A stretch of DNA of 64,000 nt, taken from NCBI GenBank assembly GCA_963708295.1, contig CAVPSJ010000012.1, positions 32,001 through 96,000 on the forward strand. The letters run 5' to 3'. The notes under the pieces were generated by a model. That model searched no databases and was not told where the DNA came from. It saw nothing but the letters and a program-made list of their open reading frames with translations. The translations under genes and the position numbers were made by a program. This document shows positions 53,953 to 58,111 of this stretch, piece after piece. Positions within the stretch are counted from its first letter, which is position 1. Each line of letters begins with the position of its first letter. This DNA comes from an uncultured delta proteobacterium. GTDB lineage: Bacteria; Desulfobacterota; BSN033; UBA1163.

Positions 53953-54004
53953 AGATAACGGCAGGCTATTCACGCTTCTTGAGAGATCATTTTGTGGAGC
54001 GTAT
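53953..54004 (-). other. attC R'/L' half, cut by the transposase relic
   Basis: Minus strand ...gaagcgtgaatagcctgcc GTTATCT; stem acgcttc/ggagcgt ends at the GGGG element end. Confidence 0.55.
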
Positions 54005-54150
54005 GGGGTCAGGTCTTGAATTATCAGTTTTGTTTATCCCTGTTCATAATCTTGCTGACCGTAGTATAATGCACCCTTAAATGATCGGCAATCTGTTTTA
54101 AGGTGTAACCATGGGTGACATGTGCATGATAGATGGCCCGGTCTCTTTGC
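54005..54150 (-). mobile_element. Relic 3' end of a RAYT-like transposase with its terminal sequence
   Basis: Minus frame RDRAIYHAHVTHGYTLKQIADHLRVHYTTVSKIMNRDKQN* (HTH), followed by taattcaagacctgacccc. Confidence 0.7.
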
Positions 54151-54153
54151 GGT

Positions 54154-54378
54154 TCAGCGTGTTGTTCGGCCTGCTGATTTCTTAGCAATGTTTATCAGGG
54201 ACCGTAAAGCCTCGTTGACGGCTTCTTCAGTAGGGAACACCTTTGCCACATCAGGGCTCAGAAGAACGAGATTTGTACCCTTTTGGTACGCCTCAAAATA
54301 CTTGCCGCGGATCCCCTGCCCCAAATCCTCCCGTCTATACTCCGGACGGAGTTCGTCGGATGGTCTATCCTTCTTCAT
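54154..54378 (-). CDS. BrnA-like antitoxin
   Basis: ELRPEY, RGKY, LSPDV..VF, VNEALR; overlaps brnT; 3' end carries R'' GCCGAAC. Confidence 0.75.
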
Positions 54379-54637
54379 AGATTTTTCTCTCCTTGCGGTC
54401 CATTAGACGCGCGCTTATAATTCTTGTTCGGTTTCCACGTTCTGTGTGAGAGACAACGATCAGCCGCTTCTGGAGTGACAAACCAAAGGTGATGTGCCGG
54501 TTTTCGCTTAAAGAGTGATCTGGGTCGTCAAATGTGATTGCCAGCGGATCTCCGAATACTGTCGCTGCCTCTTGAAATGCGACTCCGTGTTTTTGGATGT
54601 TCTCAGTTGCCTTCTTGGGGTCCCATTCAAATTCCAT
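54365..54637 (-). CDS. brnT: BrnT toxin
   Basis: FEWDPKK..N..KHGV.F, VFGDP, RIISAR, ERKIY. Confidence 0.92.
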
Positions 54638-54706
54638 ATTCGCCTTTCCACTTATTATATCAGAATTGTCACGCCATCGCAGTTACTTGTCGCAGTTATT
54701 ACTGAG

Positions 54707-54769
54707 GCCGAACATAGGCGTCACCCGGAGCCGGTTGTTTCGGCGATCGGGTGCACGCACTCGTTCGGT
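54707..54769 (-). other. attC site (63 bp)
   Basis: Minus strand ACCGAAC gagtgcgtgcacccg ... cgggtgacgcctat GTTCGGC, with an extra base in L''. Confidence 0.85.
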
Positions 54770-54941
54770 CGCCTTTTCCTGAAGGGCCAATTGGCTATGG
54801 CGAAAATAACGGCAAAATAGCTTGCCAATGCTGCCGTGATGTCCAAACCCTCGAAGGAGGAATGTGTGTCTGGGACGATGTACGTCTGCTTCAAGCCGAG
54901 CACACTACCGAAGCAAAGTGTAGAAACCATGCAATTGAGCT

Positions 54942-55313
54942 TCACCAAGTTTGAGTAGCAGTTTCGATTGTAACAGCCAAGGTGGCACGTAGCCAGCTGA
55001 ACCTTTCCTTCATGAAATCAAAATCAGGGCCGGACGTCACGAACCTTGCCGTTCCCTTGATCAAGAAACCGGCACCCGGCCCATGCAGGCCCTCGACCTT
55101 ACTGCTCCCCAATGTAATCAACACATTCGGATTATGGGCAATGTTGGCCTCCGTCTTGTGCATGTAACCTGCGGGGATAAACAGCCGTTCATCTTCTGAT
55201 ATCCTGAGGTAACTATTCCAGGTATTGACCAAGTGGGGGCCATCAGGTCCCAGGGTGGCGATCGCAACAACTCCGTCCTTCTTCATGATTTCCTTCAGTT
55301 TCTCCGGGATCAT
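54942..55313 (-). CDS. Pyridoxamine 5'-phosphate oxidase-like FMN-binding protein (cassette)
   Basis: GVVAIAT, PHLVNTWNSY, KTEAN, GPGAGFLIKG. Confidence 0.85.
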   Translation of the reverse strand: MIPEKLKEIMKKDGVVAIATLGPDGPHLVNTWNSYLRISEDERLFIPAGYMHKTEANIAHNPNVLITLGSSKVEGLHGPGAGFLIKGTARFVTSGPDFDFMKERFSWLRATLAVTIETATQTW

Positions 55314-55349
55314 CGTGTTCCTCCTTTTTTGTTTGGTTTGTTATTATGC

Positions 55350-55415
55350 GACGAACGAAAAAGGTCACCGGGAGCCAGATTTATCGGCGCTGTCGCCTCG
55401 ATTTTTTTGTTAGGG
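55350..55415 (-). other. attC site (66 bp, arms poorly paired)
   Basis: Minus strand CCCTAAC ... GTTCGTC directly after the stop at 55417. Confidence 0.7.
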
Positions 55416-55896: not shown

Positions 55897-55903
55897 TTTA
55901 TTG

Positions 55904-55962
55904 CCCTAACGTTACTCCTCAGGCGCGGCCTTTGGGACGCCGCCTGGAGGAGCTTGTTGGCC
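55904..55962 (-). other. attC site (59 bp)
   Basis: Minus strand GGCCAAC aagctcctccaggcg ... cgcctgaggagtaac GTTAGGG. Confidence 0.88.
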
Positions 55963-56538
55963 TTTCTTTTCCTTGATGCAGTGCTTTGAGTGCGTCAGAC
56001 CCGTGAGAGCTGTTATTACTGCCCCACCGAGAAAAACAGTAGAGCCTGTGAAGAGATAGACAACCAAAAAAAGGACCGCAAAGCTAAGGAGTTCAACGAA
56101 AGATATTCGGTAACTCAACCATTTTTCATAGCGAATCTGCCCCGACAGCCCTCGATGCTCCTTGGCAATGCGAAACAGCGAGATGTTTCTAATATGTCTG
56201 ACAAGAATGGCGGCTTCTCTCAAAATAAGCCCGCCACATAGAAAACGGAAGAAGTACGATGCGATCAAATCTTCTTTGGAAACATACCAAAGGAACACGA
56301 TGATGATTGAGGTTATAGCTGCCGCGCGGAAGAACCGCGGGCTGAACATGCGGAGCACGTCGATATCCTTCTGGAATTCGGGAGTAAGTTCGTAGCTACC
56401 TTCGAACACGAAATGATCCCTCGCTCCAGCGGTTAGGTATCGCGCCCCGAGAATCGTCAGATAGTAATCCGAGATGTAAAGCATGACCCATAGCGGAAGA
56501 ACAACCCAAAGCTTCTGGAATATGAATTCTTCAAACAT
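55912..56538 (-). CDS. Membrane protein (cassette; reads through its attC)
   Basis: About 5 TM; DYYLT..G, YELTP; bounded by GTTGGCC and GGCCAAC. Confidence 0.72.
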   Translation of the reverse strand: MFEEFIFQKLWVVLPLWVMLYISDYYLTILGARYLTAGARDHFVFEGSYELTPEFQKDIDVLRMFSPRFFRAAAITSIIIVFLWYVSKEDLIASYFFRFLCGGLILREAAILVRHIRNISLFRIAKEHRGLSGQIRYEKWLSYRISFVELLSFAVLFLVVYLFTGSTVFLGGAVITALTGLTHSKHCIKEKKGQQAPPGGVPKAAPEE

Positions 56539-56550
56539 CGTATCTCACAA

Positions 56551-56639
56551 GGCCAACGAAAGAAATAAGGCGCGGGGGCAACCACCCTCGCTAAATGGCG
56601 ACGGGGCTATTCCCCGTCGCCTTGATTGACTGGTTGGCA
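56551..56639 (-). other. attC site (89 bp)
   Basis: Minus strand TGCCAAC cagtcaatcaaggcg ... cgccttatttctttc GTTGGCC. Confidence 0.88.
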
Positions 56640-56640
56640 G

Positions 56641-56934
56641 TTATTGTCTTGCCATCTGGACTCGGGAGACGACCATTGCTGCCCAAAGGATAAGGATGAC
56701 CACCAAAATAATCTTCTCTTTCAGTCTCGATCTGGCCTTCTGCTCGTCCGGAATCAGCTCAAGATCACGGAAGAATAGAATACTTACAAGGGCAATAGGA
56801 AAACCGAAGGCCCCGGCAACCCACCATAAGGCGCGACTGCGGTGCTTTCGTTTTGCTAGGACGCCAGGGATTGCACCCAGACCGATAGAAATCAAGATGA
56901 AGATCAGAAGCGGCAGAAACATCAATAAGTTCAT
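56641..56934 (-). CDS. Small membrane protein (cassette)
   Basis: 3 TM, AKRKHRS..WW; RBS aggag; bounded by GTTGGCAG and CTGCCAAC. Confidence 0.7.
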   Translation of the reverse strand: MNLLMFLPLLIFILISIGLGAIPGVLAKRKHRSRALWWVAGAFGFPIALVSILFFRDLELIPDEQKARSRLKEKIILVVILILWAAMVVSRVQMARQ

Positions 56935-56946
56935 TTCATCATCTCC

Positions 56947-57017
56947 TGCCAACGCGCGAGTTGACCGACTTTTTGCCCTGGCAATGGGCGCGTGACGCCC
57001 GATTGACGGCCGGGAAT
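56947..57017 (-). other. attC R'/L' half, cut by the transposase element
   Basis: Minus strand ...aagtcggtcaactcgcgc GTTGGCA; R'' side absent. Confidence 0.7.
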
Positions 57018-58111
57018 GGGGGACGTCCATAAAAATATAAGATTCTACCCTTCCATCAGTTGGAGATGTCTTTCTTCGATGATTCTCGCCCCCCGTTTTA
57101 CCGCCTGACTCACCGCTGGCTGTGTCACACCCAGCCTCCTTGCCACCTCCGTCCCACTCACGCCCAGCTCCCTCACCGCCCAGTAACTCACCACACTGCG
57201 GGCGGCCACCCCCCTCGGGGACTTCCCCTCTGTCTTGACCTCCTCCACTCTCATCCCAAACAGCTCTGCCACCCTTCCGATGATTCCCTCCAGATTCAAT
57301 CCTTCCGCTCTCAATCCGTATCGCCGCTCCATCGCCTCTTCCGACGCCTTAAGCACGTCCCCCACAAATTCGCTCTCCCCTAAAATCCGCTCATCTCCTT
57401 TGAACCGGCCTCTCCACCTCCCCAGTCCCTCAACTCCTTCCCATCCCCCTAGACTCCGAATCAGCCCTCCTCCCATCAGATCCGGCCTTCGCCCCCTCCG
57501 TACCCCCTGTTCGACATACTCCCGGTACTTTCTTCTTGCCACTTTCACCCTGCGCCCGAAATACGCTAATACCGTGTCCACATCCTGCCACTCTCTCTTC
57601 CGAAACCCCATGATCACACTGTGTCCGCTGTACGGATAGTGGTCCAGCGCATCTAAACTCTCCACCATTTTCCCCCGGAGTGCGTTCAGGTGAATATAAC
57701 GGACCAGTTCCAACAGATATCGATCCTCCTGACACAGAATCGATTTGTAACGATTCTGAAATAACACCCCATGTCTTCGGTGCCGTCGATTGTAAGTCAC
57801 GGCGTAGCCGGTCAGAAGCCGCCGCATCAGTCCTGCCACGGAAATTACTCCGCTCCGTACCAGAAGATGGACATGGTTGGGCAGCAGAGCCCAGGCAAAA
57901 CAGGATGTTTTCGTTTCCAAAAGAAGAAGTCCCAGACGGTCGAGAAACACGCTACGATCCTCATCGTCCTGGAAGATTCGCTTCCGCTCGATTCCTCGCA
58001 CAATGAGATGCTGCACTCCGCCAGGATAATCGATCCTTGCTTTCCGAGGCATGAAAACACCCTATCAACTCCCAACCAACATGTCAACTTATAATTTTAT
58101 GGACGTCCCCC
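57018..58111 (-). mobile_element. 1094-bp element with 24-bp terminal inverted repeats encoding a RAYT-like Y1 transposase
   Basis: gggggacgtccataaaaatataag (57018-57041) vs cttataattttatggacgtccccc (58088-58111), 23/24 match; no target duplication seen. Confidence 0.85.
57045..58052 (-). CDS. RAYT-like HUH (Y1) transposase with C-terminal HTH
   Basis: MPRKAR, HLIVRG, NHVHLL (HUH), LFQNRY, YIHLN, YPYSG, EVARRLGVTQPAVS. Confidence 0.9.
   Translation of the reverse strand: MPRKARIDYPGGVQHLIVRGIERKRIFQDDEDRSVFLDRLGLLLLETKTSCFAWALLPNHVHLLVRSGVISVAGLMRRLLTGYAVTYNRRHRRHGVLFQNRYKSILCQEDRYLLELVRYIHLNALRGKMVESLDALDHYPYSGHSVIMGFRKREWQDVDTVLAYFGRRVKVARRKYREYVEQGVRRGRRPDLMGGGLIRSLGGWEGVEGLGRWRGRFKGDERILGESEFVGDVLKASEEAMERRYGLRAEGLNLEGIIGRVAELFGMRVEEVKTEGKSPRGVAARSVVSYWAVRELGVSGTEVARRLGVTQPAVSQAVKRGARIIEERHLQLMEG

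Follow-up and report, generated by a model that had tools for sequence, protein, structure and literature searches.

TIRtron insertions probably broke two attC sites in an integrase-less cassette array of a Thermodesulfobacteriota genome

We analyzed a 64,000-nucleotide stretch of DNA (the window) from the Thermodesulfobacteriota genome G000. It contains a chromosomal cassette array without a nearby integrase, that is, a cluster of attC sites lacking integron integrases (CALIN), and within this array lie two TIRtrons, elements in which a TIRYT transposase is flanked by terminal inverted repeats. One TIRtron is intact and the other is a relic with a different end sequence, and, as the initial annotation had it, they share an orientation, both being on the minus strand (57018-58111 and 54003-54149). 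In each case, the 3' end of the element abuts what is left of an attC. The reading that we favor, with a probability of about 0.7, is that two TIRtrons invaded the CALIN and each broke an attC, and that TIRtrons accumulate in such arrays without recognizing attC specifically.

The broken attC at the intact element could be compared with unbroken copies. The right (3') terminal repeat is separated by 64 nt from the R' box GTTGGCA (56953-56947), and the proposal that this repeat abuts the surviving half of an attC was borne out by metagenomes. Contigs of four public runs carried the window's 56951-57009 flanked by different DNA past R' and, at the opposite end, by a complementary arm (the best shares of the whole stretch held by public runs were 0.24 and 0.22, and no run held half of it), and an exact search with the 26-nt core found 40 copies of this attC, here called b-type, on 38 metagenome contigs. 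An intact b-type site consists of R'' (GCGCGAAC), the spacer CAGTC, L'' (GTTCGACCTGACTTTTTGCC), an apical region that forms a small hairpin of its own, L' (GGCAAAAAGTCGGTCAAC), the spacer TCGCGC, and the GTT of R'. Similarity among the 40 copies stops right after this GTT in all of them, which is the expected crossover point of an attC. A left flank was available for 39 copies, of which 38 had the L'' arm (the 5' arm); at that place, the window has the right repeat followed by ATTCCCGG, and homology resumes where the 5' arm has its top, at CCGTCAATC. The folding energy of an intact copy is -32.7 kcal/mol (z = -6.6), and that of its bottom strand is -36.4 kcal/mol (z = -7.5), versus -14.1 kcal/mol (z = -0.7) for the remnant in the window, whose stable fold is gone. 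The site is a sequence-level example of attC destruction, with the intact form documented in 38 metagenome contigs. As a separate observation, the sole copy outside the window that lacks the L'' arm, on metagenome contig L237 (1160-1262, minus strand), is broken at the same base, just before CCGTCAATC; its upstream DNA differs from that of the window and includes an R''-like GCCCGAAC. The base before CCGTCAATC may be a recurrent breakpoint.

The relic also lies inside an attC, as had been supposed. It represents the 3' end of a sister element, whose repeat is ATGGGGTCAGGTCTTGAA, and matches the 3' 147 nt of full elements of ~0.93 kb (five copies in genome G010 and one in G014), all matches spanning exactly query positions 52 to 198; its 54-aa open reading frame (ORF) scored 26 bits to Pfam HTH_23, a helix-turn-helix (HTH) family, above the cutoff of 24.6. 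On the 5' side of the relic, the stop codon of BrnA overlaps the R'' box GCCGAAC, after which come L'' (AACACGCTGAAC), CG, and the start of the relic, and the BrnTA cassettes of G001 and G013 have the same 21 to 22 nt and then continue into their own attC. On the other side, the R' box GTTATCT occupies 53959-53953, and the last ~19 nt of the flank resemble the 3' end of the BrnTA attC of G001. GTTATCT is a real cassette boundary, because a VapBC module starts exactly there in both G005:C299 and G014:C51. In the latter (L069), about 12 to 30 nt before the GTTATCT of VapBC, we also found ATTCAAGACCTAATACC, which is like a decayed right repeat of the relic type; judging from this sequence, relic and VapBC may have been neighbors for a long time.

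In each of the two sites, the break falls at the inner end (top) of the R''/L'' arm, in agreement with the earlier view that both junctions lie where the stem reaches the L'' box. The letters AT|GGGG, which had been pointed out at both junctions, are indeed there at both. In elements of the relic type, the terminal repeat itself includes the AT (full copies have ATGGGGTCAGG at either end), and in the subfamily of the intact element, an AT lies beside the C-run in two of the eight listed right-end flanks, both from G000 copies. Table 1 gives the coordinates.

Table 1. Elements, attC sites, and cassette genes of the array, in window positions
Feature	Positions	Strand	Basis or remark
Intact TIRtron, 1,094 bp	57018..58111	-	Terminal inverted repeats; further copies
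Left (transposase-proximal, 5') terminal inverted repeat, GGGGGACGTCCATAAAATTATAAG	58088..58111	-	Same tip at solo ends elsewhere in G000
TIRYT gene, 335 aa, C-terminal HTH	57045..58052	-	Pfam Y1_Tnp, E = 3.9e-8
Right (3') terminal inverted repeat	57018..57041	-	23/24 positions complementary to left repeat
8-nt spacer between right repeat and attC remnant, ATTCCCGG on minus strand	57010..57017	-	Resembles ATTTTCCG 3' of the right repeat of the C14 copy
5'-truncated attC (b-type)	56947..57009	-	Apical region, L', spacer, R' kept; R'' and L'' lost
R'' (GCCGAAC), L'' (AACACGCTGAAC), and CG of BrnTA attC	54150..54170	-	Directly 5' of relic; compared with BrnTA cassettes of G001, G013
Relic, last 147 nt of GGGGTCAGG-type TIRtron (HTH codons and right repeat)	54003..54149	-	82-90% identity to full copies
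attC 3' part (43 nt) and R' GTTATCT	53953..54002	-	Boundary common to G005:C299, G014:C51
attC a	58448..58539	-	R1, 62.7 bits
Cassette ORF, no family match	58112..58443	-	Reading frame enters left repeat of intact element
attC c	56546..56640	-	R1, 92 bits
attC d	55899..55963	-	R1, 28.9 bits; R2, 41.9 bits
attC e	55345..55412	-	By eye and homology to G013 BrnTA attC; unscored by R1/R2; half-models 6.2, 3.2 bits
attC f	54702..54770	-	R1, 16 bits; R2, 25.5 bits
BrnT toxin (54365-54637) and BrnA-like partner (54154-54378)	54154..54637	-	Pfam BrnT_toxin, E = 2.6e-29; attC of the cassette holds the relic
attC h	53229..53317	-	R1, 20.1 bits; R2, 38.7 bits

The intact element has terminal repeats of 24 nt that are 96% complementary. 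Its 335-aa protein scored 33.9 bits to Y1_Tnp (cutoff, 23), while its HTH tail matched Bac_DnaA_C below the cutoff (E = 4.2e-4, 20.7 versus 31.5 bits); in the translation, we take H60-V61-H62 to be the HUH motif and Y119 to be the likely catalytic tyrosine. A second G000 copy (G000:C14:290202-291308, the C14 copy) has an identity of 83% at the DNA level and 85% at the protein level, further copies occur in G019 (88%) and G005 (87%), five other G000 contigs carry distant homologues (30 to 47%), and solo repeat ends stand at several G000 sites. A repeat-to-repeat joint (57040>58089) appeared in public run X2, a weak match with one side of only 22 nt. The box GTTGGCA recurs downstream of three right ends (C12, C14, and G012), and the right end of the C14 copy is followed by a tandem CGTCCCCCATTTTC unit.

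The initial annotation had called these elements RAYT-like, that is, like REP (repetitive extragenic palindromic)-associated tyrosine transposases, and a use of attC by such a lineage not known to be described; as a kind, they are already known. TIRtrons were defined as TIRYT transposases flanked by terminal inverted repeats with the consensus GGGGWSAS, according to the accessible text of Di Nocera, De Gregorio and Rocco (2013, PMC3733652), and TIRYT corresponds to TnpA subclass 2.1, with a C-terminal Bac_DnaA_C, HTH_23, or HTH_28 domain, in that of Quentin et al. (2018, PMC6006769). The elements studied here share with them a RAYT-like Y1/HUH transposase of ~300 to 335 aa, a Bac_DnaA_C/HTH_23-like C terminus, and terminal inverted repeats; the relic type (GGGGTCAG) fits the consensus at 8 of 8 positions and the tip of the intact element (GGGGACGT) at 6 of 8. 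We assign them to TIRtron/TIRYT, subclass 2.1. Unlike the TIRtrons described there, those in the window sit in attC sites, co-oriented with the cassettes, and the word "integron" is absent from the accessible text of both papers (PMC3733652 and PMC6006769). TIRtron repeats are also reported there to occur singly, in dimers, or in clusters, and the repeat tips that we found outside element ends match this description: of 31 elements, 11 had extra tip hexamers no more than 45 nt beyond an end (12 hexamers versus 0.7 expected). A few bases beside a repeat, such as the ATTCCCGG spacer, may therefore be element derived. One such locus (L177, about 3840-3940) has three tandem CAGTGAAGGGGGACG... units, each made of flank and repeat tip, before the left end of a TIRtron.

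Homologues (E of 1e-20 or better) were present in 25 of 31 genomes of the bacterial family, with at most 11 matches per genome, and more than 571 relatives were found in public genomes, mostly of Thermodesulfobacteriota. Terminal repeats scoring at least 17 and starting GGG(G)AC or GGGGTC bounded 23 of 29 homologue loci, in units of 0.93 to 1.10 kb. Signs of mobility included copies that are 83 to 89% identical in differing contexts, solo ends, and miniature repeat-to-repeat forms.

Three other element families were considered and set aside. RAYT/REPtrons have the closest NCBIfam model, REP_Tyr_transpos (REP-associated tyrosine transposase), and likewise have repeats dispersed in the genome, but the match of 55.7 bits is under the cutoff of 80, the flanks here are inverted repeats without GTAG REP hairpins, and the multicopy units look mobile as wholes. 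IS1111-attC elements (IS110 family of insertion sequences [IS]) and group IIC-attC introns insert inside the attC sites of arrays, usually in one orientation. They differ in having a DEDD transposase or a reverse transcriptase with a ribozyme and in occupying a defined attC position, whereas the protein here has a Y1_Tnp domain and the positions of TIRtron junctions vary. Members of IS200/IS605 have subterminal hairpins instead of terminal inverted repeats, a TnpA of ~140 to 160 aa without an HTH tail, and a fixed 4- to 5-nt target. The presence of terminal inverted repeats and a 335-aa protein separates our elements from them, while the Y1/HUH catalytic domain is shared with IS608 and ISDra2, and the strand bias seen here resembles the lagging-strand-template preference described in the accessible part of PMC5027513. 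An IS200/605 element adjoining a CALIN, and the clustering of elements that depend on single strands, are mentioned in the available text of PMC7923331.

The array itself consists of short minus-strand ORFs from about 58540 down to 53230, each followed by an imperfect hairpin between an ...AAC box and a GTT... box, with at least six attC sites, all on the minus strand. The features of a CALIN are all there: repeated R''...R' attC sites with imperfect hairpins, similarity that ends at G|TT, a single strand, and ORFs in between. No integrase ORF was seen in the window flanks, and in the whole of G000 (4.9 Mb in 20 contigs, 91% complete, 5.6% contamination), no protein reached the integron integrase cutoff of TIGR02249 (best, 86.4 versus 265 bits), so the array is an attC cluster without an integrase. 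Cargo recognized by Pfam includes PIN/VapBC, BrnT/BrnA, and a PNPOx-like gene.

Sites a and c belong to one sequence family that recurs at 82 to 94% identity in many related genomes. We built a covariance model of this family (R1, from alignment A1 of 31 copies) and a broader lineage attC model (R2, from 42 sites). In the alignment, the stem is formed by R''/R' and L''/L' pairing, and its 5' arm has single bulged bases; 84.8% of the cells are paired, versus 30 to 44% with the partner slid, and 11 of 20 stem pairs change on both sides, mostly between two subfamilies. R1 matched five sites in the array, on the minus strand only, and R2 raised the scores of the weaker ones; a heuristic finder based on AAC...GTT was dropped as too crude. 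The lineage model gave 0.5 bits for the flank of the intact element and -1.2 bits for that of the relic, and half-site hidden Markov models had no match on either of these flanks. These models fail to cover the b and relic attC types, so their negative scores carry no weight, and we ceased to count them as evidence against attC halves once the metagenome copies of the b-type site were found.

Next, we looked into where TIRtrons lie relative to attC. The survey of homologues with repeat-defined ends, through which a fixed attC position had been expected to emerge, gave none: the distance from the repeat end to the nearest attC edge ranged from 0 to more than 1,000 nt, on either side of the attC and often beside an intact one. 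In G010, the stop codon of a cassette is followed after 12 nt by a full relic-type element, and an intact attC comes 58 nt 3' of that element; the C4 homologue has one attC 321 nt before it and the next, again intact, 99 nt behind it; and at other loci the nearest co-oriented attC edge was 3, 24, 25, 36, 99, 212, 254, 453, 496, 534, or 611 or more nt away. Across the phylum, 65 of 80 homologue loci had no R2 match within about 4 kb; among 27 loci from other genomes of the family, 7 had one within 1.5 kb (E < 0.01) and 20 had none; and in the subfamily of the intact element itself, the count was 2 of 10 loci. Furthermore, 33 in silico empty sites (joined flanks of 50 + 50 nt) folded no better than windows from the same loci (-9.17 versus -9.09 kcal/mol; Wilcoxon test, P value = 0.62). 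With varying positions, attC-poor loci, and joined flanks no more hairpin-like than controls, insertion at a fixed site, as in IS1111-attC, is ruled out. In our reading, TIRtrons do not recognize attC as a specific site, and the idea that this lineage uses the bottom-strand hairpin of attC as its specific target is not supported.

When the intact element or the relic was excised in silico, the joined flanks also rebuilt no stable hairpin. The arm that the b-type site has lost is thus not to be found across the element, and a further deletion or a recombination between copies must be assumed. None of 40 relatives had the b-type attC.

Of the proposed link between this Y1 lineage and attC, what remains is a looser one: TIRtrons are overrepresented near attC sites and almost always co-oriented with them, with no fixed insertion position. 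In five genomes with 10 to 17 R2 matches each (a lower bound, 150 candidates per genome having been scored), 8 of 44 TIRYT-like genes lay within 5 kb of an R2 match, compared with 9 of 141 other IS (18% versus 6%, about 3-fold; Fisher test, P value = 0.03). Random placement would put at most 3.4% there (P value = 1e-4 for the 8 of 44). The other IS comprised IS200-type (1 of 12), rve (3 of 51), and DDE_Tnp_1 (5 of 78) and were also somewhat enriched near attC (P value = 0.05), so part of the enrichment is a general effect of arrays as IS sinks. In G000, where R1 matched at only 8 loci in 4.9 Mb, 4 of 9 TIRYT copies (3 of 7 loci) were within 5 kb of attC matches; other IS gave only 5 matches in this genome, too few to serve as a control.

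The orientation was more uniform. All 30 R2 matches, found at 15 of the 80 phylum-wide loci, were co-oriented with the transposase; with filters off, 34 of 35 were, the exception being the reverse reading of a plus-strand match. In the family set, 12 loci were co-oriented and 2 opposite (L090 and L107). In addition, the TIRYT sense strand was on the locally G-rich strand in 9 of 10 G000 copies (P value = 0.011), a bias that fits single-strand transposition at replication forks, and the attC loci were less consistent in this respect (5 of 8 co-oriented with the skew). These results support a real, orientation-specific association of TIRtrons with arrays, looser than targeting, whose cause we leave between the readings weighed below. 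In the literature, as far as the texts were accessible, we found no link between TIRtrons and cassette arrays beyond the single IS200/605 element next to a CALIN (PMC7923331). The roughly threefold excess over other IS, together with the co-orientation of all 30 matches, is a quantitative hint of such a link, on which the available text of the TIRYT papers (PMC3733652 and PMC6006769) is silent, and if the link is mechanistic, it would join two systems that both act on folded single strands.

Three further observations concern arrays and their elements. At G000:C4:1007421-1011500 (L116), a degenerate integron has an 87-aa C-terminal fragment of a tyrosine recombinase, divergent from a six-attC array; the fragment (G000:C4:1007421-1007618) is intI-like, with 86 bits to positions 250 to 315 of the integron integrase model, and the first cassette holds a 46%-identical TIRtron. 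In G019:C15 (L046, about 1493-3400), a group II intron-like reverse transcriptase with a YADD motif lies in an array just downstream of a TIRtron, near attC matches, and is read on the opposite strand. Finally, four of nine listed copies of a DDE_Tnp_1 IS of G010 (520-aa frame) are 0.85 to 1.6 kb from attC matches (C1:1617707, C1:2613182, C2:599361, and C2:536064), and this may be a second IS type that favors arrays.

The course of events that we propose would be as follows. TIRtrons are IS-like units of about 1 kb, with a TIRYT that bears a C-terminal DNA-binding HTH, between repeats of 24 to 30 bp that start with GGGG[AT]C. By kinship, they would move like IS200/IS605, via single-stranded DNA at replication forks, which would explain the strand bias, and they would build up in arrays because these can be dispensed with and contain many hairpins. 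Both insertions would have broken the attC hairpin that they hit, at the top of the R''/L'' arm. The left-hand junction would have been lost later, through a deletion or recombination between copies at the intact element and through an internal deletion at the relic, leaving the 3' end of an element joined to an attC that has lost its ability to fold, so that those cassettes would be fixed in place.

Several points weigh against this account. Both junctions in the window are at equivalent hairpin positions, and junctions 5 to 8 nt from R'' or R' in L177, L171, and G005 exceed what a plain sink would predict. The empty site of the window copy was not found in 40 relatives, nor that of the C14 copy in 14 genomes of the genus, and the left-hand deletion is presumed. 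The single-strand mechanism would be carried over from the kinship of TIRYT to IS200/IS605 and RAYT. The attC models, built from the lineage, missed real sites (types b and e), so that the counts of attC near elements and the genome-wide background are both lower bounds. Moreover, copies within a genome are not independent, and the P values of the association overstate it; the GC skew is weak (0.01 to 0.05) and was read from a 20-contig assembly with 5.6% contamination.

Some of these points would be met if TIRYT preferred the single-stranded parts of a folded attC (the apex or the feet of the hairpin) or the adjoining DNA, in a strand-specific way and with a loose position, which we consider unlikely on the whole. 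Two TIRtron subfamilies, in two attC families, share the break at the top of the R''/L'' arm; elsewhere, the gap between a right end and the box that follows it is 7 nt in L177 (R'') and 5 nt in G005 (an R''-like box), and left ends follow R' by 8 nt (L171), 25 nt (L182), and 36 nt (L084). The 3-fold excess over other IS and the 30 of 30 co-orientation point the same way. Nevertheless, of seven elements with an attC known on both sides, four had an end within 60 nt of an attC versus about 1.4 expected if placement in the cassette were uniform, a rough hand count that is marginal and in which the case from the window had been picked for this very feature. Joined flanks show no general likeness to hairpins, detected attC sites are distant from most copies, and co-orientation can follow if cassettes and TIRtrons are both aligned with replication. 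It is likewise doubtful, although worth stating, that TIRtrons form a third, HUH-based class of integron-associated elements, which would integrate in cassette orientation into or beside folded attC sites (apex or feet). If they do, attC breakage would freeze neighboring cassettes, an undescribed way of stabilizing and eroding arrays in Thermodesulfobacteriota.

That TIRtrons ride as passengers in cassettes moved by integrase, their presence in arrays merely reflecting cassette traffic, is improbable. Two loci look like such units, with 323 nt, an element, and 24 nt between two attC matches in L177 and with 212 nt, an element, and 529 nt in L104, so that there is little cassette content besides the element. 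However, because both copies in the window destroy their attC, their units could not be cut out as cassettes; the subfamily is also found outside arrays (C14), 8 of its 10 loci lacking an R2 match; and flanks differ between copies. Still less probable is a strict attC-specific insertion like that of IS1111-attC, the strongest reading offered initially: the equivalent positions of the two junctions in the window would suit it, but the G010 and C4 elements next to intact attC sites, the positions on both sides of attC, and the 65 of 80 and 20 of 27 loci without an attC match speak against it. Domestication, with a gene outside any mobile unit and repeats that serve the host as structural elements, as for RAYT with REP, is the least probable of all, since the solo and clustered repeat tips and the REP-associated nearest model that would favor it are outweighed by whole repeat-bounded units of about 1.04 to 1.09 kb in varied contexts (at most 11 matches per genome), by decayed and internally deleted copies, and by the lack, across the family, of single-copy, syntenic, vertical inheritance. 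We thus retain invasion of a CALIN by two TIRtrons, without specific recognition of attC, as the preferred reading.

The cassette ORF next to the left repeat of the intact element had no homologue in 40 relatives, and an Rfam scan of 52000-60000 returned only chance microRNA- and small RNA-like matches. Just upstream of the first attC, ~60 nt with a hairpin GGGCTTT...AAAGCCC (58529-58591) have copies of 76 to 97% identity in many related genomes. Just outside the array, 58699-58900 contains C-rich and G-rich inverted repeats (CCCTCACCC... and GGGTGGGGTGAGGG). A dispersed repeat of ~90 to 290 nt at 61535-61765, unrelated to TIRtrons, occurs at dozens of G000 sites and adjoins solo repeat ends on contig C17.

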